From a virus (Duplodnaviria; Caudoviricetes), in IMG/VR virus record IMGVR_UViG_3300037067_009128, positions 32,001 through 96,000 of that record: a DNA stretch of 64,000 nucleotides. One strand, written 5' to 3'. Every line of letters starts with the position of its first letter. The stretch's first letter is position 1. A program made the translations under genes and the position numbers. The notes beneath the pieces are model-generated. The model did not search any database. It was not told the DNA's origin and saw only the letters and a program-made list of their open reading frames with translations. This document shows positions 1 to 62,901 of this stretch, piece after piece.

Positions 1-900
1 CATTTTAAATTCAGCAGATCTTCCAGGAGGAGCAACTTTATTTTTATCAGCTTTAATACTTATTATTTTAAAATCAGGACTACCAAATGCATCTTTCTTT
101 TGAGATTGTTTTTTATAAGTCATTCTTAACCTAATTGATGCATCAAATTTTCCAGCTTCACCTCCCGATACAGATGTAGCATCACCCCATGTCACACCTG
201 GTTTTATTTTCATATGATTTATCATCAAAAGAGTTGTACATTTATCTTGAAGTTTATGTAAATGTTCTTCAAGTACTCCCCCAATTTTATAGATTTTATC
301 AGATCTTATTAAATCTCCCTTATTGTAATCACCATTCTTTTTCATTGTTCCTGGAGGTCCAATATAATAACCAGAACGTAATCTTTTGTAAAAGTCTGTT
401 AACATTTTTGCTTGTGCATAATTTTCATATTGTGAAAAATTTGCTTGATCATATCCTACTGTAGCTGCAGTATCAGGTAATATAGCAGCTTGTGAATCTA
501 TTACATACAAATCAACAATATTTAAAGCAAAAGTTAACATTGCTTGATACAAAGCATCATCTCCTGATGCTGTATCCATCATATTTAACATTTTTCTATC
601 TAAATTCATACTATCCGTATATTCAGGTCCAGGAAATGTTCCTTCTCTATCATCCCAATTAGTTATCAAACCTTCTCTCTGGTAATCACCTACAATATTA
701 ATAGCTAATGTTGTTTTACCAACTGATGGAGGAGCATATAATTCAATAGTTCTACCTCTTGGTATTCCTCCACAACCAAGAACTATATCATTTAAACTTG
801 GCAAATGAGTAGGAACTATTTCTACAGGAGCTATTTCATCTGCAGTTTTTATACCCGGAAAATATTTCTTTATATCACTATTATCAGTGTAGTCATTCAT
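1..900 (-). CDS. recA: RecA-family recombinase (runs off the window start; absent from ORF track)
   Basis: Manual translation from ATG at 900: LGCGGIPRGRTIELYAPPSVGKT (Walker A), YVIDS (Walker B), SGGEAGKFDASIRL, KNKVAPP. Confidence 0.95.
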   Translation of the reverse strand, partial: MNDYTDNSDIKKYFPGIKTADEIAPVEIVPTHLPSLNDIVLGCGGIPRGRTIELYAPPSVGKTTLAINIVGDYQREGLITNWDDREGTFPGPEYTDSMNLDRKMLNMMDTASGDDALYQAMLTFALNIVDLYVIDSQAAILPDTAATVGYDQANFSQYENYAQAKMLTDFYKRLRSGYYIGPPGTMKKNGDYNKGDLIRSDKIYKIGGVLEEHLHKLQDKCTTLLMINHMKIKPGVTWGDATSVSGGEAGKFDASIRLRMTYKKQSQKKDAFGSPDFKIISIKADKNKVAPPGRSAEFKM

Positions 901-7835: not shown

Positions 7836-7893
7836 GAAACTCCTAAATTATTTTAAATTTGATTTGCAAATATAATACATCTAATATTTTGTA

Positions 7894-12993: not shown

Positions 12994-15057
12994 TTATATC
13001 CTCTTTTTTGAATATTCTTCATTAGTAAAACAAATCCATAAAGGTCTTCCAATTCTATCTGGGGCATTTATTCCTGGATCAGTGTTTTCTAGACGTTCAA
13101 CTTTATAAAATACATCTTTAAGTAAAGATTCATAAAATACATCTTTTCCATTTCTAATATCATCTGAATGTCCTTCAACTATTACAACACCATCCGTTAT
13201 TTCATTAATTTCTTTTAATATTAATTTTTGATTATTAAAATTTTCAATAATTGACAATAATAATACTACATTAAATCTAACATTATGAAAAACTTCTTTT
13301 GTCGATATATGATTAATATCTACATTCATAAAATTATATCTTAATTGAGGATATAATTCTTTTGACAATTCAATATAATCTTTATCAGAATCTATTCCGT
13401 AAACATTTTTGAATCCTAAAATATATTGATTAACAAAACAACCAAGATTACTTCCTATATCAATTAAGATATTATTAGGGATATTATAAGTATTGATTAC
13501 ATTATTAATTAAATTAATTCTACTTTGTGAATCTCTTAACCCTTCAAATACTATCCCTTCTATTTTAATTGTTTGATAAGGCATATAAAACTTCTTATTT
13601 TTGTATTCAAAAGTTTTGTTATCTACCCATCTTCCTTGTAATTTAGAAAGTATGTTTATTATCTTATTATCTATCATAACTAAAGCATCCTTTAATGGTT
13701 GAATAAAATTCTTTTCTCTATTGTTATTTTCATCAAAAATATCACCTACAAACTCAAAGTCTCTCCTTTCTGTAGGAAAGGGTTTTGGATTAGAGTTGTA
13801 AAAATCAAAATCACTATGTTCAATAGTTTCATCTTTAATAGATGCATATAAATTAGAAAGTAAATCCTGGTCAGCTTGTTTATAATCTTCCTTCTTTGCA
13901 TTTATAAAAAATTTTATATATTTATACAAAGCTCCATTTTTAACTCCCCACATCCCGGCCATTATCAAAGCCGTATGCCAAGGGTGGTCTCTCATTATAT
14001 GGAAATCTTTATCAGATTTTAACCATTCATCAACAGCAGCTTTTTCTCTTAAAGAAAGTCTTGAATCTGTGTCTCTAAAAATAACAATTTCTGCTTCATG
14101 TTTAAATGCAGCATTAAATCTCCATATTGTTGATGACCAATTTCCTAATTCTTCCATTTCAATAACATCAACATTATCAAAAGATTTTAACTCATCAATT
14201 ACATGTTTATAAATTTCTCCAACATAAAATAAACATCTCCAATCGGGGTATATCTCTTTAGCTAATTTAGCATTTTCGATAGCACCTTGTGTGTATTTTT
14301 TATCTATTCCCCACAAAGAGAAACTTATTACTTTTTCTTTGTATGCTATATAGTTAAGATTTAAATATTTATTATATTGTAAATAATCAATAATTCGTTT
14401 TTTTAGAAAAAAGAGAGCACCTGTTGGATTTAATGCCCAATCACCATTTTCATGAAGATTGCAATGCATTCCTCCATAACCGTAATGATCAACATAACTA
14501 GTTCTACTAATAATAACTTTATTATTATATAATTCTCCTACTCGCCAATCAAATCCCCCGTGTTTAGCTATTAACTTTCCACCATGTGTATTTGAGTCAT
14601 CAAGCACTCTTTTTACCATTTCTCTGTCAAGAAATATAGAAATTCCGGGAAGATACTCTCTTATAACTTCAAATTGTTCAGTATCATCAACTGTGAAATG
14701 AGTATGACAATTACTGTTATATAAACTTATTGGAACGTTCCACTTATCATGTAATAAGATTGCCATGTCTTCCCAGTTTGTATCATGGAAAGCATCATTA
14801 TCAGTTAAATAAAGAAACTCATATTCTGAATTATAAAAATCTTTAAAATGTTGTAATCTTTGTTCTTCAATTCCTTTATTTTTACTAATACTTACATGAT
14901 CAGAAAATTGTTTTAACCAAGTTTCATCATATTCAGTAGATCCATCATCATAAATAAAGATATCACTTTCATTTGATACTTGTTTTAATTGATTCAAACA
15001 AAGTTCTGTAATTTTCTTTCTATTGTAAGTTGTTACTGCAATATAAATCTTTTTCAA
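12994..15057 (-). CDS. Three-domain fusion: GT2 glycosyltransferase + second GT-A-like domain + methyltransferase
   Basis: TTYNR/YDDGS/TDND; KVISFSLWG...FRDTDSR...MRDHPWH...DQD; LIDIGSNLG. Confidence 0.8.
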   Translation of the reverse strand: MKKIYIAVTTYNRKKITELCLNQLKQVSNESDIFIYDDGSTEYDETWLKQFSDHVSISKNKGIEEQRLQHFKDFYNSEYEFLYLTDNDAFHDTNWEDMAILLHDKWNVPISLYNSNCHTHFTVDDTEQFEVIREYLPGISIFLDREMVKRVLDDSNTHGGKLIAKHGGFDWRVGELYNNKVIISRTSYVDHYGYGGMHCNLHENGDWALNPTGALFFLKKRIIDYLQYNKYLNLNYIAYKEKVISFSLWGIDKKYTQGAIENAKLAKEIYPDWRCLFYVGEIYKHVIDELKSFDNVDVIEMEELGNWSSTIWRFNAAFKHEAEIVIFRDTDSRLSLREKAAVDEWLKSDKDFHIMRDHPWHTALIMAGMWGVKNGALYKYIKFFINAKKEDYKQADQDLLSNLYASIKDETIEHSDFDFYNSNPKPFPTERRDFEFVGDIFDENNNREKNFIQPLKDALVMIDNKIINILSKLQGRWVDNKTFEYKNKKFYMPYQTIKIEGIVFEGLRDSQSRINLINNVINTYNIPNNILIDIGSNLGCFVNQYILGFKNVYGIDSDKDYIELSKELYPQLRYNFMNVDINHISTKEVFHNVRFNVVLLLSIIENFNNQKLILKEINEITDGVVIVEGHSDDIRNGKDVFYESLLKDVFYKVERLENTDPGINAPDRIGRPLWICFTNEEYSKKRI

Positions 15058-43507: not shown

Positions 43508-43549
43508 TATAAATATATCCGAATAAAAGATGTATTATATTTAATCAAT

Positions 43550-43634
43550 CAAAAAAATAATTGAAAATAAAGTTACCATTTACTTTATTCCTTGCAAAGA
43601 AGGCCCTAGAATTGTAAAATTTTGGGGTCTTTTA
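43550..43634 (+). ncRNA. Candidate small antisense RNA complementary to the early-gene RBS motif
   Basis: Promoter motif 43529-43543, no plus-strand ORF, seed CCATTTACTTTATTCCTT (43576-43593), terminator 43601-43633. Confidence 0.65.
43601..43633 (+). terminator. Intrinsic terminator
   Basis: AGGCCCTAGAATT-GTAA-AATTTTGGGGTCT-TTT; three G-U pairs valid only on the plus strand. Confidence 0.75.
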
Positions 43635-43708
43635 GTGTTTATCGAAAATCAAAAGATGTATTAAATTTATTGTATCAATTTTAATAAAAATTAAATAAAA
43701 GGAATAAA

Positions 43709-51834: not shown

Positions 51835-51914
51835 TAGCGAACCCAGTGGTAATTTGGATATTTAATATGCTTTTTACTTTATTAAAAAATTATTTTATTT
51901 TTATAAAATTTTTA

Positions 51915-51943
51915 TTGACAATTAAAATTTTATTTTATATATT
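51915..51943 (+). promoter_or_regulatory. Host sigma70-type early promoter
   Basis: TTGACA-17-TATATT with AT-rich upstream tract. Confidence 0.85.
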
Positions 51944-52545
51944 GTATTGTAAATAAATTTTGATTGATTTTTAATTATTTAATAATAAAAAGGAATAAAA
52001 TAAAATGGAACAAACAATACAATTTGGTTTTAATACAATTCAATCAAATAGATTTGTGGGAGAAAGAAAAAAAGTTTATTTAAATGATGATCAAATTGCA
52101 AAAATTGAAGAAAGAAAAAAAGAACAAAAGATTGAAAAGTTAGAATATCAATTTGATAAGTATGAATTTATTGTTAAAGAAATTAATGAAGAATTCAATA
52201 CAAAAGGGCCAAAGGGATTAAACAAATTAATGAAATCATGGAAAGATAAAAAACAATTTGAAGATTTTGATAAAGTTTATATTGATTTGATTGAAAAGTT
52301 TGGTGAAATAAAAGGTTCAATTAAGTTTATGTTTAAAATCAATAATGAATTTTTAAGATTTGATGATGGAGCAATCAATAAAACAAGAAATAGAATCAAA
52401 GTTCAAAGAAAAGAAAAGAAGTTACCAAGTACAAAAGAATTACAAACAAAAGAAGTTGTTAGTTCAATTGTCAATAGTTTTGTTACAAGGGATAAAAGAA
52501 GAAGGATTTTTTAATTAAAAGTTTTTAGTTAGTTTAAAATAATTT

Positions 52546-55500
52546 AAGGAGTAAAGTAAAAATGATTAATGTATTAAACAATGAAAAGTATCCTTCAAAA
52601 GAAGATATATTAAAAAGTTTACCTGATAAGATTGTTATTAAAACGAAACATCCTATTAACAAGGTAAAAGTTTTGAAATATGAAATTGAAAAAGAAGGAG
52701 ATACACCTTTAAATAGTAATGAATTTGAAACAATAGGGACATTTGAAGGTGAGTTAGAGATTACAGATGATATGAAATCTGCAATTTTAATATTAAATGA
52801 ATCTTTTAATAATGGTCCTTATATAAGTTTCCCTGAAAATGGAGAAAGAACATTCTCAATAAAGTTTAATGAAAAAATAACTGATGATTTTGAGATATCT
52901 CAAGAAGATCTTGATAAATTAATACTTCAAAGATCTGCTTGGGGAGCTTATACATGGATTTATTATTATAAAGACATGATATCAAGAATGAATAGTTATA
53001 ATTTTGATTTAACAAAAAAGGTTAAAAAAAATTCAAAAAGATTTCAATTGTTGTGGTTATTTGTGAATGTTTCTACATCATTTAAAAGAAGTGAATTAGT
53101 ATCAAAATTAGGTAAACCTGGTATAACAGATTTATTATGGAGCTTTGTTGGTGATAAACGAAATGATGGATTCTACAAAGCTCCTTTAATATTAAGAACT
53201 GGTAATGGTTGGTATGAATTAACTGATTATGGAAAATTAGTATACGATAATTCAAATAAATAAAAGGAGTTAAAGTTATATGTCAAGTTATATTAAAAAG
53301 TTGGTTAAAAAACAAACTAATGTAAATAAGTTTGATAGTAATTCAAATACAACAATTAATTATGTAAGAGGTAAACTTATATTAAAGGATTTTTCTGAGC
53401 TTGAATTATTATGTGTTGCAAGTAATTTGGAAAGTAATAAAGTAAAAGATAAAACAAAATTTAAAGTAATCACAGGTTAATAAAAGGAGTAAAGTAAAAA
53501 TGGAAAAGTTATTAAGTTCAGATAAATTAAAAGTAGTTGAAGCTTTATTTGATAATGAAATTCAAATATCAAGTTTCATTTTAGATCAGATTAGTGTTTC
53601 AAGAATTTCAAATTCTGATTCTGGTATAAAAATTGAAGAAGAAAATATTTTATCAATTCTAACAAGAGATTTAGAATCATTATCAAAAGTATTGGAATTT
53701 TTAAATGCTTTAGGTTGGGTAGAACATACATCCGATTGGGATCCTTGGTTAATGATTAATTTTGTTGATGAACAAGAACAGTTTGAGAGTCCTTCAGGTT
53801 ATTTTTTGTTTGATGTTGATAAGATCATCAATACAATTGTTATAGAAGCACCTGATGAAGAAAATCTTGAAGAAGACGATGAAAGAAGATTCTATAAAGA
53901 CGGGAAATATGTAATTCCTATAAATTTAATTAAGTCAATAGATATAATGAGATAAGCTAAAAAAAGGAGTAAAGTAAAATGGAAGATCATAATTTATATC
54001 AAGAGTTAAAAGATTTAATTGCAAAAGAAGTTCCAAAAGAAATTCTTGAAAAAGAAGGGTATGCAATTGAAGATGTTATTAATAGTTTGAAATGTACTCA
54101 AAATGAGTTTTGTCCTAATATGTCACTTATAGAGATATTTCAACAAGAAATTCTTTATTATAAGAATTTTGGAAGATCAGCTTTAGATTCTAATTATTGT
54201 GGGAAATCTATAGCAATTAATAATAAACCTGTTTGGAAACATTATCCTGGAGGTCATTTAGAATGTAATCCTACAGGTAGAACCACTTATAGAGAATTGA
54301 GAGATTTACTTAATCGTATGAGTGATTTTCAATTAGATTGTGATGTTACTATTGAAGACCCATATAATGAACCTTTTAATATAGTAAAAGGGGAATTAAC
54401 AATTTGTGGACCAGAACATAAGTTGGTAGATTTCTATCCTACAATAAGAATATTATATAAGGATTAAACTATGGAACAAATGATATCGTTTAATCTAGGT
54501 AAGAAATTTACCAAAAAAGAAATCAAAGAAATCAATAAAAAGAAAGATAATAATTCAGAAGTTATAACTTTTCAAGGGATTGACAAACAAACTTCTGGAT
54601 ATTATACACCTGTAAAAGATGACTTTGAAAAGGAAGATGAACAAGTTGATTGTAGATTTATTCAATTGTTACAACAATTAGATAATCAGTTGAGTCATAT
54701 AGATAACCCTATGATTGCAGATTTATTAATTCTGACAACCTTGAGAGATTTTGAAGATTCTCAAGCTGAACAAAAAATAAAAGATTATCAATTAATTTTA
54801 GGAGTAAAGTAAAATGATTAATGCAGTAAATGATATAATTGCAATATCAACAAGGATTTATGAAATCTTATTAAATGATTCTGCTGAAGGGTATATTGTA
54901 AGACTTTTTATTCATGATGAAAAGATACCAACTATATATCATTTTGATAATATACAAGAAATTAAATGGAATTGGTTTGGTACAGAAGAACAAATTAAGA
55001 ATCATACAAAACAATGGTTAATAGAACGTGAAGCAGAATTTGAGATTTTTAATTTAACTTCTGATTCATCTGAAGAGAAGTTTGTATTTCCAATGCATTA
55101 TGTTTATGAATTTTTAATAGGAATTAAGTAAAATGATTTTTATTGTAACATCTGTAATTTTAAAAAGTGAAATTTTTTCAAAAGATGTTTATCATCGTTT
55201 TAATTCAAATTCAATAGATGAAGTTGTTGTAAAATTAAAAAGAAAGTATCCAGATTTAATTAATTATTATTATCACATTCAGAGGAATAAAGTAAAATGA
55301 AATTAATTTTTTGTCCCATATGTACTGATATTATTAGATTATCTCATGATAATTCTACAGTTTATTGTGAATGTAAAAAATCATCAGGTAGATATGTTAA
55401 TCAAATTGATGCAATCATTTATGGAGAAGCAATTCCATTAGGTATTTCAAATGAATCTTTTTCAAAAGCTTTAAGGAATAGACCTCAAAATGGATTAGGT

Positions 55501-58397
55501 ATTGAATTTAAAGCATTTGTAATTCCAGTTGAATGTAAATCAATAATTATAGGATAAAGTAAGATGGAAGTAAATGATATTACAAATATGTTAAATTCTT
55601 GTGGATTAAACGTTACAACAATTGATCTTGTAGACAATAATACAAAATGTATGACTTGTCAATGTATGTATATGGTACAAGAGATGGCTTCTAGAATTTG
55701 GACATGCCCAAATTGTGGGAAAACAGGATTTAAACCTTTTGTAGATTTAATTAACAAATATGCTAAAATTGATATGATTACATATGAAGAATCTTGGAAT
55801 TTAGCAAATAATTTATTAATATTTAAACAAGAAGAATGTGAAAGTAAACATAAAATATATTTTGACGAAGACTATTTTTATAATGATTTGTTAGATTTTT
55901 ATAAAAGAAGAAAGTTAAATAAATTTCAAAAAATATTAAGGTTTTTAAGGATTAAACAATGATAATAAAAATATTAGATGAATTTGATGATGTTGTCGTT
56001 GAAGAATTTTATAATAAAGATGATTTTCAAGATTATTTTGACGAACATCCAGAATTGAATGTAGATCAAGTAATTATAAATGGTAGAATATTTTTTGATT
56101 GAGATGAAATTAATAATTATTTAGAGATACAAAATGAAATATAAAAATAGAACACTTGATGTTAATAACATGATTCAAATTTATTTAGATGTACATAAAG
56201 AAAAGATTACTTTATGTGAAGCTGAAAAAATGTTAATTGCAACAAGAACTCTTCCAAAGTTAAATTCTGTTAGAGGTAATGGAGTTCAATTAAGATCTCT
56301 TTGGAATAAAAAAGCATTACTTGGTGCTTATAAGAATGAAAATGGTAATATTATGATTAAAAGAATAGAAGAACGTGAAGAAATGTTATCTATGAAAGAG
56401 GCAGCCAATAGATTATTCTGTACTCCGGGTAATGTTTATATTTTAATTAATAATGGTAGATTACCTATAAGAATAATAGGAAAGAAAACAAAGTATTTAT
56501 ATCAATCTGATATTGATAATTATAATAAAGAATATTCAAAAGGAGTAAAGTAATGAGTGATATTAAAATTAAAAATATTCCAGAAACTGAGTATGAAGTT
56601 GTAGAAACTACAACTGGTCCAGAAAAAGTGGAAGAAAAACCTAAAAAGAAAGTTGGAATTATTGGTAATGGATCAGCAATGCAAGCATTTAGTTTATTAA
56701 TGGGTATGTCAGTTGTAAGTTTATATCCTGATAGTACTTTTTTATTCACTAAAGAAGATCATCCATCAAAAGATAATAGACCTTTAAGAAGAAATGAAAA
56801 GACTTGTCCTGATTGTGGTCAACCGTTTACACCACATGGTCATAATAAATCTGATAGATGTACACCATATTTTAAAGCAAAATTTAAAATATAAAAGGAG
56901 TAAAGTAAAATGGAAAGAAATCAATTACAACAATTAATATGTCAAAAGTTTTTAGGATTGTGGCTTGCATATCCTGAATTAAGATTTAATCAATTAGTTC
57001 TTAGCTTATCTGATTATCCGAATGATACATCTAAAATGTTTTATACAGAAGATGGGTGGTTTAATGATATGTTAACAAATGCTTCTAAGAATGGATTTTA
57101 TAGAACTATTAGTCCAGTTGATATTAAAGACAAACAATTAGAATCCATGCTTGTTGATGGGCTTATGATCGAAGATGTTATTAAAAAGGTTATTGAAATG
57201 AATGGGTTAATTGGAGTAGGATTGGTAAGTTTACAAGAAGAAATTAATAATATCATGACAAGAATTAGACTTGATATGAACAAGAATCATTAAAAGAAGC
57301 AATATATTTGTATTGATTGAAATTAAAATTTTATAATTTAATTAAAAGGCCTAAAATGAGTTTATTAAAAAAAGTTCCTAAGTATCATGCTAAAAAGATT
57401 CAAGAAATTGAGAAACTTACTGATTGTAGGTGTATAGGATATACAGGTGGACAACCTTCAAATGATATTGTACCTGAAGGAATTAATATTTTCTTATTCG
57501 TTTCTAATAAAGATGATGAAGAAATGGTAATTGATGCTAATAAAATTAGAGAAATTATGTGGAAAGGTGAAGATTTACAGTCACATATTATGTTTGGATT
57601 TAATCATAGCAATCCCGATTCATTTTGGATGATTGAAACTTATTATTATTAAAGGAAATTAAAAAAAGAAACTAAAGAGATTAAAAAGAGATAATAATGG
57701 AAACTAAAACAATTAATGCAATAGATTTATCTGTACAACTAGAAAGACTTTATCCTGTTGAATGGAATAAACAAAATGAAAGAGAAGATGATAATATTAT
57801 TCTTCAAGGTAATATTATTATTGATAAAGAATATATTTGTCCTATAGATATCTATTTTAATATAGATGATGGATTTAATTTCTTTGAAGATGCTTTACCT
57901 AAGATAAATCAAAATAGTTTTGTTGTATTTAGAAAGATTGATAATGAGATTAGGATTTACCCTATAGAATGGTTAATGTGTGAAATACCATTTTTTGGAT
58001 TAGCATCTGAAAATGATGATACTACAATCATATTAATACGAGTATACGATATAGATTATGAATTTATAAAAGTTTATTGTGATACAAAATTAATTAAGGA
58101 GTAAAGATTATGGGATCTTTAGTACGTTCTAAAAATTGTGCAAAGATAGTAAGATTATATTATAATGATATTAAAAATATTTATAAAAAAGAAAAAAATT
58201 GGGATATAGATATTTTAGATAAAAATGAATATGTTTATATTGTAATAAAAACAGCTGCTGAAAATTTTGTGTCTATTCCCATAATAGAAGGTGATGATTG
58301 TATAAGAGGAATGTGGATTGATATTAATATAACTGAAGAAAGAATGAAAGAGTTAATTCCTAATCTTTATAAGTATTTAATTAAGGAGTAAACCATG
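52546..58397 (+). repeat. Dispersed repeat (A)GGAGTAAAGTAAAA(A)TG at gene starts
   Basis: Exact GGAGTAAAGTAAAA at 52548, 53486, 53966, 54801, 56897; variants before 53280, 55133, 55297, 55564, 56553, 58110, 58395. Confidence 0.9.
56134..56553 (+). CDS. Excisionase-like (HTH_17) DNA-binding protein
   Basis: MLSMKEAANRLFCTPGNVYILINNGRLP. Confidence 0.75.
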   Translation: MKYKNRTLDVNNMIQIYLDVHKEKITLCEAEKMLIATRTLPKLNSVRGNGVQLRSLWNKKALLGAYKNENGNIMIKRIEEREEMLSMKEAANRLFCTPGNVYILINNGRLPIRIIGKKTKYLYQSDIDNYNKEYSKGVK

Positions 58398-61300
58398 TTA
58401 TTTGTTTGTGAATTTTGTGAAACTATAAATGAAATAGATGATATCCTTAAAATTAAATGTGAAAATTGTGGTCATAAAGATCCTGTTAAATTCACAAGAG
58501 TTTATAGTCAAGATGAATACGATGATAGAGTGTTAAATAAAGAAGATTTACCTAAGATTAAAGAAAAATTAAAAGATATAATACACAATATGCCTGATAA
58601 AAATAGTTTAACAGATTTAATAAATGAATCTGAATCAAATCTAATAGATGTTGTATATATGCTAAAAACATATAGTGGGTTTGAGTATGATAAAGAGCAT
58701 TTATTAAATACATTAAATTCTATTGCGATTGAAGCTAACAAGATTATTAAAATATTAAAGGATTATGTAAATTAATTTAGAATTCTTTCAAGGAATTGAA
58801 GATTATCCTGATTTTGTGCTTATGTGTACTAAATTAATTAATCTTGGAGTAGCTACAAAGGATTTATTAACTGAAGGTGAGACAAGATATTCAATTGCAT
58901 TAATAGAGGATGTTTTAAGATAAACTAATAAAGGAATATAAAGGTTAAAACAATGACTGATGAAGAGAAAATAGAATTTAGAAAAGTCTTTATTAAAGAT
59001 TTACAAAGTATAGCAAATGGTGTTTTTGGTATATGTAAAACTCTTTACACTTCTGATAAAAGAATGATTGTTTTGATGATTTGTATGCGATTTAATATAG
59101 ATTATAATCCTGATGAGAAAATTACAAGAGAAGAATTAATAAAAAAGTATCAAGAGTTGTACATCAAACAAATTGAAAAAAATATCATGGAGTTAGAATG
59201 AATAAACAAGAATGTGATTTATTAACAAATTCTGTATGGGATTGCAGTAATTGTGAAGATTATAAACAATGTCAATATTCTAGAATTGGTTGGCACAATC
59301 TATTACTCCCAATAGTATTTATAGTATGTACAATTATAGTTTTATGGAAGGTATTATGAGTTTATTTCAATGTTCAAAATGTGGTTGTATAGATAACACA
59401 GTTACTTCAAGACATGGATATGAAGGTATATATAGATTAATACCTGAAGATGTATTAAAGTCTTATAGAGAAGTTTTAAAATTAAAACCTGAAGATAATT
59501 TTGGGATTTATTGTTGTGTTTGTAGTCCCATTTGGTTTGATGAAAATGGAAAATATGGTATTGGACCAAAACCAGAAATAGATATTAAATTATATGAGTG
59601 GCATAATATATTCCCTAGAAGATTTTTACCATTAGGAGAATGGATTACTGATGAAGAAACTGGTAACCTCAAACATAAAACAACAGGTGAAAAGAATTAT
59701 TATAAATATATAATTAAAGAGGAATAATCTAATGAATAGTATTATGGTTGATGTAAGATGTTTTCATTATTTAAAAGAAAGAGATATTTTAATATTTCTA
59801 GATGCTAATGATTATAAATATTATAGAGATGATTACGATTTAACAATAATAAACCCAGATGAGTGTTGTGTTGAAGTTTTAACATCATTTGGTTATGAAT
59901 TCAGAATATTATAAAAGGAATAAAACTATGCAATATGATACAAGAAGAATTCAAGATCAAGAAATAGAACCTTTACTTAATAAGATATTTGGTTCTTGGA
60001 TTAAATTTGTTGATGTTACTCAAGATGATGGTGAATGGTATATGAATATTGAAACAATAAAAGGAAAATTAACTTCTAATGCAAGATTAACATCAGAAGG
60101 TAAAGAAGGTGATTTCGTTTCAGTATTTTGGTTTAATTTTTACCCATTAGGTGCTGGTAATATCAGGTTTGATGGGCAGTTATCCAGAAAAGTTCATGAG
60201 TTTTGTAAACCATATGAAGGTTTATATAACGAAGAAGAAATAAGAAATAAACTTATTGACAAGTATAATGAATTGTTAATTAAATATGGTGGTGCAGGAA
60301 AGAATCTAGTTAGTCATTTTGTTAATTTAGATTAAAGGAATTAAATCATGCAATTTATCGTTACTGGAGTTGATACTGGAAGATTCCCTGAAATATTATT
60401 GATAGAAGATTGGTTTATTTATTTCTGTTACAAAGATTTAGTTTATTCTGTTTGTTTTGAATTAAGTCCTGAAGAAATAAATAAAGATAATGCATTAAGT
60501 TATGTTTTGAGAAATAGAGACAACTGGAAAAAAGAAACATGGAATGCAGAGTTAAAACAGATAACAGGTTTAAATGATAATACTCAATTAACGTTAAAAG
60601 ATTGGAAATATATTACAAATCAAGGAAATAACATTTTATGAATGAATTAGAAATGGTTATATTAAAAGATCTGAAAATATTTATTGTTGATTTTTTAAAG
60701 AAAGAATTAAATTTTAATAAAGATGATGTTAGAGAGTTATTTATCAATGGACAATTTAAGGTTGATGTTATTAGTTCAATACAAATGAGTTGGGATTTAG
60801 CACGTTATTCTAAAAAAGAAGTTGATGAGTGTACATATAAACAATGGAATCAAATTAAAAGTAAATTAAGTAATGAAATACGTAAACAGTTATACCCATT
60901 ATTAAGAGAAGGAAAGATTATTACCATTACTTCTGATCTTGGTTCATGGATTGAGTTTACAATATTAGAAAAATTTTAGTTATGAAACCTCATTTAATAT
61001 TTGTTAAAAGAAAAAAACATCCTTTTAATAAGATGGTTTATAAAGATATGAATCTTAAAGTAGGTAAGAATTCTATTTTTCATAGAGGAGAAAATAAAAT
61101 ATTTTGTGGTAATACAATTGCAGAAGTTATTAACAATGCTAATGTTTATTGGATGACTCACAAAAGAACCAGAAAATTGATTAATAAATAAGGAGAAATA
61201 AAATGGCAACAAAATTAAAGTCTTTATTTGAAATAAATAATAAAGCATATTATAATTTAGGTTACGAGGAAGGGCATGGCAGCATGGGGAAAGGATATGC

Positions 61301-61591
61301 TCTTGAATATTATGCCTGTAAAGATGGGTTTATTACACGAGTTGAATTTTTTGACGAAAAGGAACATAACGAGCCTTTTTCAAAAGAAAGACACTTACGT
61401 GATTTACCTAAGTGGGCTAAAGAAAGGATAGACTTAATCCCAAAATAACTGCCGATACAAGAATTGTTAAATTATAAACAAAGACAATATTTAGAAAGTG
61501 AATTAAATAAAAGGATTATAAATGAATGAATTAGAAATAGTTATGTTGTTTTATGTAATATGGGAAATAGCATTGAGTATTTCAGAAGATT

Positions 61592-62750
61592 GATTCTCCC
61601 CTCTCAAAGTCAAATCAACCCTTTTCAATTCCAAATCTGAATTTTTGATTTCTGCAATTACCCATCTACTTTAGTATGTGTTTTTCAAATATTTATTTTT
61701 CCATTCTTTTGATACCCTTTTGCACCTCGATTTCTCAAGATTCCCAAATTCCCCACAATTTATTTAAAACTTCCTTTCTTCATTCTAACAAACGATCCGA
61801 CTCCCAACGAGGGCGCTTAAGGAAAGAATTAATCCTAAGAATAACCGTTTTAATTTAATTTAAATGATAAAAGAATTAAAAATCACTTAACTCTTTGAGA
61901 TTAAAGAAATAAATTATTGAGTATAAAATAAATAAAAGAGTAAAGAACAAAGAAATAAACTTCATCATTTGTTTTATTCTTTACAGTTTTATTCTTTATA
62001 ACATACAGATTAATTCGTTTACATCACTTTGTTCTTTGTTTCTTGAAGGTAAATATAGTTTGAAAGAAATATAAATACCTTTTTCATTCTGGAATTGGGA
62101 AACTCCAGGTAATCCCTCTAGTCGGCGATGTTGGCTCCCTGGGCCATAATATGATTCTCGGCCTACGTCTCCTCGACACAAGCCTCAAGGCTCATCTCCC
62201 TGAGACATAGAAGTACCTCTTTTTACTCATTAGATACTTGAGCTTGAATAGAGATCGAAATTTAATACAAGGGTAAATTTGATTTATTCTTTGAGATCTC
62301 TTCCCTACAGAAGATTAATCTATCCAATCATTGATAACCTCTTCTTTACGGAAGATATACAAATAATATAAAGACAACAAGCTAACTTATGATCTCTATG
62401 ATTCTATATAGACACTACTTGACCTTTCAAGGCCCAAAGTGTATGTTATAGACCTTAGAGAAATCAAAGTCAACTTCTGGCCAATGGGAATGAAAAATAA
62501 AGAACGAAGTGATATGGCCAGGCATTTATGTTTACAGCTTCATGCACGTGGCCACCACTGGGCTCGCAAAGAATGAGGATAATAAGAATGAGGGGGAGGA
62601 CTGCGAACCCACTGGATATTATTGGCCCAAAGGATTGTGTAGATTGGAAGTTGGGTTACAAGTTTCTTGGCAAGTTGGAACGTGGATTGATACAAATATA
62701 AAAACAACTTTCCATCATACTAACTCACCTTTGTTGATTGACAATTGAAT
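61592..62750. other. Long non-coding region, C-rich then GC-richer, with inverted and direct repeats
   Basis: No credible ORF; AAAGAACAAAG IR (61942/62027); GTTTTATTCTTTA x2 (61971, 61986); IR 62555-62615. Confidence 0.7.
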
Positions 62751-62872
62751 TGTTAAATTGCCTTATATCCTTGTATTATATATACAGTTTATATATGCAA
62801 TTGTATATTGAATTGTATAATTAAAATTCTAAATTATTGCTGTAGATAAGTAAAAAGATTATAAAATTTTAC

Positions 62873-62901
62873 TTGCATATGTGGAATAAATTCTTTATAC
62901 T
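62873..62901 (+). promoter_or_regulatory. Sigma70-type early promoter
   Basis: TTGCAT-17-TATACT. Confidence 0.8.

Follow-up and report, generated by a model that had tools for sequence, protein, structure and literature searches.

Promoter-early stem-loop (PeSL) cassettes of T4-type phages (Arbiol et al., 2010, PMC2839356; Comeau et al., 2014, PMC4122927) extend from the stop codon of the upstream gene through a promoter and a stem-loop to the Shine-Dalgarno (SD) sequence and start codon of the next gene, lie before ORFans, and recombine, with crossovers mapped between the SD/ATG and the −10 box, to delete, insert and circularise genes (PMC2839356). The subject of the present analysis is a repeated start region, referred to here as the tag, which sits before unrelated ORFan genes in a 64,000-nt stretch of DNA (the window, bases 32001-96000) of the 117,325-bp contig IMGVR_UViG_3300037067_009128 from IMG/VR, a record of an uncultured phage from groundwater. 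All coordinates below are window positions unless stated otherwise.

Other arrangements of this general kind are known from phages. The host-takeover module of SPO1 (terminal redundancy, genes 37-60) holds eight unrelated genes that share a leader/ribosome-binding site (RBS) sequence, which is GTAAAAGGAGAGGTT-like and longer in most copies. The c4 RNA of P1 and P7 (compare sar of P22) is a small phage RNA that blocks the RBS of one operon leader (icd/ant), and in T4 an early-gene signature of GGAG-type SD and start sequences goes together with RegB and RegA and the collective shut-off of early translation.

In the groundwater phage, the tag comprises the SD sequence AAGGAG, a 9-10 nt spacer, TAAAGTAAA(A), and the ATG, often as ATGGAA. 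The form AAGGAGTAAAGTAAA(A)ATG, or a recognisable variant of it, is found at 13 of 19 consecutive starts (52005-58395) with its distance to the ATG fixed, in the gene block discussed here. The copies are the following.

51992..52007, + strand: degenerate tag GGAATAAAATAAAATG (A in place of both G), before the gene at 52005-52514
52546..52564, + strand: canonical tag AAGGAGTAAAGTAAAAATG, before the gene at 52562-53263; free-standing, 47 nt separating the upstream stop from the start
53264..53282, + strand: variant tag AAGGAGTTAAAGTTATATG, before the gene at 53280-53480
53484..53502, + strand: canonical tag AAGGAGTAAAGTAAAAATG, before the gene at 53500-53955; free-standing, upstream stop at 53478-53480
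53964..53981, + strand: canonical tag AAGGAGTAAAGTAAAATG, before the gene at 53979-54467; free-standing, upstream stop at 53953-53955
54800..54816, + strand: canonical tag AGGAGTAAAGTAAAATG, before the gene at 54814-55131; its second TAA (54810-54812) ends the gene at 54471-54812 (...LGVK*)
55120..55135, + strand: variant tag GGAATTAAGTAAAATG, before the 55-aa gene at 55133-55300; its second TAA (55129-55131) ends the gene at 54814-55131 (...IGIK*)
55284..55300, + strand: variant tag GGAATAAAGTAAAATGA, before the gene at 55297-55557; an ATGA overlap ends the gene at 55133-55300 (...RNKVK*)
55552..55566, + strand: degenerate tag GGATAAAGTAAGATG, before the gene at 55564-55962; its first TAA (55555-55557) ends the gene at 55297-55557 (...IIIG*)
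56540..56555, + strand: shortened tag AAGGAGTAAAGTAATG, before the gene at 56553-56894; a TAATG overlap ends the gene at 56134-56553 (...KGVK*)
56895..56912, + strand: canonical tag AAGGAGTAAAGTAAAATG, before the gene at 56910-57293; free-standing, upstream stop at 56892-56894
58096..58112, + strand: variant tag AAGGAGTAAAGATTATG, before the gene at 58110-58391; its first TAA (58102-58104) ends the gene at 57697-58104 (...LIKE*)
58383..58397, + strand: variant tag AAGGAGTAAACCATG, before the gene at 58395-58775; its first TAA (58389-58391) ends the gene at 58110-58391 (...LIKE*)

These copies far exceed chance and are private to the block. The 16-mer GGAGTAAAGTAAAATG has three exact copies (53966, 54801 and 56897) compared with none in 100 shuffles, and at up to two mismatches there are nine tag copies where 0.21 are expected. 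In the whole 117,325-bp genome the 13-mer core GGAGTAAAGTAAA occurs five times and GGAGTAAAG seven times, all of them as + strand copies within 52548-58098, and nowhere else on either strand. For comparisons between genes, a set of 172 self-trained gene calls was used, which agree with those of an independent caller on the Logan assembly (the 55-aa gene at 55133-55300 is called there too), and 17 block genes were compared with the 155 other genes of the genome by Fisher tests. GGAGTAAAG precedes 7 of the 17 block genes and none of the 155 others (p = 2.5e-8), and the looser pattern GGA[GA]T[AT]AAG precedes nine of the former and again none of the latter (p = 8e-11). The earlier note on this DNA had described a motif whose exact copies are confined to one early block, and in this it is borne out: the motif is real, start-anchored and, as to its exact copies, limited to a single block behind a host-type promoter, and the outcome that had been named as speaking against it, an equal frequency before other genes, is not observed. 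When all start regions were clustered at 18 or more identities in 22 positions, the tag was the sole large family in the genome, the other families having 2-4 members. GGAG genes outside the block, including the large + strand genes at the start of the contig, have varied spacers.

Two minor observations concern the start regions of neighbouring and distant genes. Two untagged block genes carry, at 54458-54473 and 55946-55961, a second, small start-region type, TAAGGATTAAAC(T/A)ATG, and GGATTAAAC-like spacers are also present at a few genes elsewhere in the genome.

The tag is a block-specific translation-initiation region (TIR), not a promoter or a hairpin. Conservation is limited to about −28..+3; the 10 A/T-rich bases 5' of the SD show a slight excess of similarity (4.56 vs 3.74 of 10, p = 1e-5), while 3' of the ATG an excess is absent among the tagged genes. 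No inverted repeats associated with the tag copies were found, nor any terminator-like sites on the + strand between 52 and 59 kb, and no Rfam families were found in the window. Several other descriptions of the element were considered and rejected. The TAAAGT/TAAAAT part is not a promoter, as it lacks a conserved −35 and the transcript would begin inside the gene; the tag is not an unusually unstructured start region, since the predicted opening energy of the tagged starts is the same as that of the remaining ones (p = 0.31); and the junctions do not carry the extended flanking homology of a recent duplication, the excess being confined to those A/T-rich upstream bases.

The earlier note drew attention to stop codons in all three frames of the element. 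The individual upstream gene ends that were named are all correct: the first TAA serves ...LIKE* at 58104 and 58391, the second TAA ...GVK*/...GIK* at 54812, 55131 and 56553, and the ATGA ...NKVK* at 55300; to these can be added ...IIIG* at 55557, which ends with the first TAA in a degenerate copy. Of the 12 junctions between 52562 and 58395, seven thus have an upstream gene that ends inside the motif. In the remaining five the upstream stop precedes the SD, and the canonical 13-mer is found at four of these (52548, 53486, 53966 and 56897), its fifth copy, at 54801, being the only one that an upstream frame overlaps; the other overlapped copies are degenerate. Stops in all frames within −16..+4 are present at 5 of 17 block starts (29%), 16 of 155 other starts (10%) and 1.3% of random 20-mers, and an upstream stop falls within the SD or spacer of the next gene at the same rate in the block (6/17) as elsewhere (51/155). 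As a design feature the three-frame stops therefore fail, because most of the best-conserved copies are free-standing and do not use them, junctions with a stop inside the RBS, which make up a third of all, are generic in this compact genome of 25% GC, and all-frame stops occur at 16 other starts. That upstream genes end on TAA and TGA triplets of the motif is a by-product of the dense gene packing of an AT-rich genome. The motif can serve as a backstop for any upstream frame, and so can many other start regions of the genome. That the tag is a block-private TIR with incidental stops is very probably correct.

What has to be explained is the uniformity of the tag. Identical 9-nt spacers before unrelated genes, together with the varied spacers outside the block, mean that selection by the ribosome alone is insufficient, and spacer identity beyond what the ribosome needs points to recombinational copying, to a shared regulator, or to both, as the two can coexist. 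The preferred reading, with a probability of roughly 0.45, is that the tag would be a block-specific junction module, a strong TIR reused before 12-13 unrelated small ORFans of one early-type block, the copies of which would have been spread and kept uniform through recombination or gene conversion between junctions. Such a module would be a minimal PeSL-type boundary, promoter-less and hairpin-less, at which genes could be gained, lost or swapped and still be expressed. For the narrower claim that the uniformity is owed mainly to recombinational spread, the odds are put a little lower, somewhat short of even. The uniform tag would also make the block one post-transcriptional unit, for which a candidate anti-tag RNA at 43.57 kb, described below, would be the most concrete handler.

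Several observations are in line with a junction module. The only similarity is bounded sharply, from about 10 nt 5' of the SD to the ATG. The 162-aa protein of the tagged gene at 53979-54467 has a homologue in a distant relative, L091, the start region of which is different (GGAGAATAAGA), and hence the tag belongs to the place and was not inherited with the gene. The proposal in the earlier note that the motif acts as a joint for the exchange of gene cassettes is plausible by analogy with the PeSL precedent, and a RecA/UvsX-like recombinase gene (PF00154, E = 6e-20) is located on the − strand at the left edge of the window (1-900; genome 31887-32900). Weighing against this reading, a motif-bounded indel or replacement was found in no related genome. 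The identical core is just 16-24 nt and so shorter than PeSLs, the Logan and ENA assemblies of the phage are colinear with the window and show no rearrangement, and the flanks are devoid of residual homology that would mark recent events. Moreover, pure selection, through pairing with the anti-tag RNA, would equally yield a sharply bounded motif.

Related genomes that could display exchanges at the tag proved scarce. No DNA-level relatives were found among 50,697 phage records (INPHARED) in near and distant search modes, and no close relative in IMG/VR, the JGI metagenomes or a collection of 15 billion proteins. An exact 17-mer of the tag is present in 84 IMG/VR contigs, with one copy each and none of them related to the phage. 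Protein-guided scans of IMG/VR gave nothing with the 233-aa block protein, the DNA polymerase or the 162-aa family and one distant match through a 123-aa protein; a scan of JGI metagenomes with a neighbouring conserved gene gave 80 loci and no close relative. Contigs found in the protein collections are identical to the window, and the only lead to a near relative is a landfill sequencing run (X2), in which 40% of the 31-mers of the block are present. When 61 phage loci containing this neighbouring gene were surveyed, start regions with an exact 14-mer repeated at least three times were present only in the window and in one relative, L100 (27% GC), which has a 21-mer of its own, AAAGAAAGGAAATATAAAATG, before four non-paralogous genes:

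L100:9985-10010: copy of AAAGAAAGGAAATATAAAATG
L100:10789-10815: copy of AAAGAAAGGAAATATAAAATG
L100:13138-13164: copy of AAAGAAAGGAAATATAAAATG
L100:13534-13560: copy of AAAGAAAGGAAATATAAAATG

Two of the L100 copies are identical over 30 bases and also resemble each other further upstream, and a TTGACAATTAAA promoter accompanies one of the two.

A promoter-like sequence lies at the 5' end of the block:

51914..51943, + strand: host-type promoter-like site ATTGACA-17-TATATT, in the 170-nt gap 5' of the first block gene, and the best sigma-70 match (11/12) in 46-64 kb

The other 11/12 sigma-70 site in 46-64 kb lies at 61228, about 2.5 kb past the block, and a weaker promoter candidate was read by eye near 57310. 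The extended −35 sequence ATTGACAATTRAA occurs exactly on the + strand of the window only at the 51914 site and at 62737, and the same ATTGACAATTAAA is located upstream of the tagged genes in L100. The −35 shared with L100 supports, and does not prove, an early block that would be driven by the host polymerase.

The alternative that fares best is that the spacer is held uniform mainly by selection, a single trans-acting factor reading the SD, spacer and AUG to switch the block off (or on). In its most concrete form, an RNA of about 85 nt would pair through a predicted single-stranded stretch with 15-18 nt over the SD and AUG in the manner of c4 of P1/P7:

43548..43637, + strand: candidate trans-acting anti-tag RNA, about 85 nt, in which CCATTTACTTTATTCCTT (43576-43593) mirrors AAGGA(G/A)TAAAGTAAA-TGG

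No other non-trivial complement to the consensus tag in the genome is predicted to pair as well as CCATTTACTTTATTCCTT (−21.5 kcal/mol, compared with −18.0 for the next). The unit is intergenic; a promoter-like motif (43526-43543) lies on its 5' side, the complementary stretch is followed directly by a strong intrinsic terminator (about 43598-43633), and the predicted fold has an energy of −25.7 kcal/mol (z = −4.35). When the start regions of all 172 genes were ranked by duplex energy, the top seven were all block genes. The suggestion in the earlier note that the motif is a probable small RNA (sRNA) target is thus strengthened in silico, the block starts being the best predicted targets in the genome for a candidate antisense RNA, and this support for the antisense-target idea is suggestive. 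The promoter-like motif in front of the unit, AAAGATGTATTAWATTTA, has 16 copies on both strands where 3.9 are expected, and none in the tagged block:

43526-43543, + strand: AAAGATGTATTAWATTTA copy, 5' of the candidate anti-tag RNA
43652-43669, + strand: AAAGATGTATTAWATTTA copy
46787, 44373 and 39918, + strand: AAAGATGTATTAWATTTA copies
7867-7884, − strand: AAAGATGTATTAWATTTA copy immediately 5' of the DNA polymerase start
13102, 13129, 31373 and others, − strand: AAAGATGTATTAWATTTA copies

The motif may represent a second, possibly later, promoter class, and its position by the polymerase start would fit later expression of an RNA that acts on the block. Against such a regulator, sRNA regulons normally allow far more variation among their targets than five identical 13-mers. 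Part of the anti-tag is in a predicted weak hairpin. In addition, ten anti-tag bases match the RBS of the gene that follows (43710), which means that the anti-tag could instead mask that RBS in cis in a read-through RNA. No anti-tag was found within the 14-kb fragment of L100. A regulatory tag, in the general form and in that of the 43.57-kb RNA, is regarded as possible but less likely than the junction module. Rather unlikely is the full combination in which a private 18-nt stop-RBS-start tag has two jobs, with the anti-tag RNA silencing about a dozen unrelated genes and the same sequence serving as an integrase-free cassette boundary through which genes enter the regulon by recombination.

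On the minus strand (43578-43540), the anti-tag reads as a perfect tag, AAGGAATAAAGTAAATG, behind which lies a hydrophobic mini-ORF (open reading frame) of 12 codons (MVTLFSIIFLID*). This is probably meaningless; as an alternative origin of the complementarity, the site could be an inverted relic of a junction.

Uniform start regions could also descend from serial tandem duplication of a gene together with its start region, after which the coding parts diverged while purifying selection preserved the starts. The genes are indeed small, adjacent and on the same strand, CxxC zinc-ribbon-like motifs are present in several of their products, and ATGATTAATG is common to the starts at 52562 and 54814. 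The block proteins, however, have no pairwise similarity at E < 0.05, are not paralogues and range from 47 to 233 aa in length, similarity shows no excess 3' of the ATG, and the homologues of the 162-aa protein elsewhere have other start regions. The strong constraint on the spacer would also stay unexplained, and diverged paralogues are considered improbable. The proteins themselves give few clues. None belongs to a PHROG or Pfam family, 5.8 billion protein clusters include no homologue of the 233-aa protein, and of 20 block and neighbouring proteins that were looked up, 18 are in single-member clusters and the other two cluster only with alternative assemblies or start calls of the same phage. 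The 162-aa protein is a fusion, both halves of which exist as separate proteins of 70-90 aa in other metagenomic phages, and its C-terminal domain of about 65 aa (PTGRxTY...DVTIED...ICGxEH..LDDFHP) occurs widely and belongs to no Pfam or PHROG family.

Slightly less probable again is that the tag is merely an optimal RBS, reached by convergent selection for efficient early translation with neither copying nor a regulator. Here the enrichment of AAGGAG in the block (8/17 vs 22/155, p = 0.003), a spacing close to the optimum, and the A-rich spacers and GAA or AAA second codons typical of strong starts would all fit. Convergence is not, however, expected to give five identical 9-nt spacers; the tag is found at no gene outside the block, where GGAG genes manage with diverse spacers, and the tagged starts are not easier to open. 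Least likely of all is a processing site, GGAG/AG-UAAAG-UAAA, at which an endoribonuclease of host or phage would cleave, between SD and AUG, to inactivate early messages by the logic of T4 RegB, for although GGAG-type SDs are concentrated in the early-type block, as in T4, and lone G residues stand within an A/U-rich context, no RegB (PF10715) or RegA (PF01818) homologue was found in the whole genome at E ≤ 1.

The genome in which the block is found is about 95% complete (CheckV) and is classed by IMG/VR as linear without end repeats. Its DNA polymerase is distantly SPO1-like, with 24% identity to the polymerases of SPO1-like Bacillus phages. The first 31 kb of the window consist of minus-strand genes, including those for the DNA polymerase and the RecA-like recombinase, and 31.6-63 kb of about 100 small plus-strand genes. 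Beyond the block, at 61450-62900, is a non-coding stretch of about 1.4 kb that is GC-richer, has no ORFs or Rfam matches, and ends at a consensus ATTGACAATTGAA promoter (62737). A comparable non-coding stretch of about 1.27 kb in L100 (L100:11890-13160), with short tandem repeats GACCTCCAA/GACCTACAA, is situated just 5' of its ATTGACAATTAAA promoter, and the two may represent a conserved origin, packaging or injection-related region. Similar GC-rich 13-mers accompany the ATTGACAATT promoters of the window at 51.84/51.91 and 62.60/62.74 kb, namely GCGAACCCAGTGG (51838-51850) and GCGAACCCACTGG (62603-62615), which lie 64 and 122 nt 5' of the respective promoters. In L100 a near reverse complement, CCAGTAGGTTCGC (about 13010-13025), is at a similar distance from its promoter. 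This GC-rich element seems to be linked to the ATTGACAATT promoter class.

If a bare RBS tag suffices for modular exchange, the PeSL principle would hold for far smaller units that lack both promoter and hairpin, and in a lineage remote from T4, and if the tag also addresses one antisense RNA, it would represent a rare case of a virus-encoded RNA that controls a whole regulon through a common RBS. Block-private start signatures could, in addition, help to delimit early or host-takeover gene sets in uncultured phages that lack homologues.

By analogy, the tag is best seen as a stripped-down relative of the T4-like PeSLs and of the repeated control cassettes of SPO1. Like PeSLs, it forms repeated near-identical junctions that run from an upstream stop to the SD and the next start codon, and its copies stand before ORFans, the T4-type region being likewise early and plastic. 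It differs in that the unit contains no sigma-70-like promoter, its conserved columns being only AAGGAG..ATG and about 10 A/T-rich bases, and no stem-loop that could act as terminator or attenuator, in keeping with the lack of inverted repeats at the copies. At about 18-28 nt it is also far smaller than a PeSL, which is a whole promoter/terminator cassette, and its copies are inside a polycistronic block, whereas it is for PeSLs that gene shuffling has been observed. With SPO1 the phage shares the grouping of small, unrelated early genes that follow host-type promoters and have a common leader/RBS. The sequence is a different one, however, and in SPO1 the conserved part is upstream of or within the SD and follows promoters, with a variable spacer by the ATG, whereas in the groundwater phage conservation includes the spacer, and most copies stand at internal junctions. 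Similarly, the tag is much longer and more uniform than the targets of RegA and RegB, homologues of which were not found. The candidate anti-tag RNA would resemble c4 as a short promoter-to-terminator RNA with a predicted exposed stretch complementary, in silico, to an RBS of the same phage, but where c4 acts on one operon leader, the anti-tag RNA would have 10-13 separate genes as its targets.

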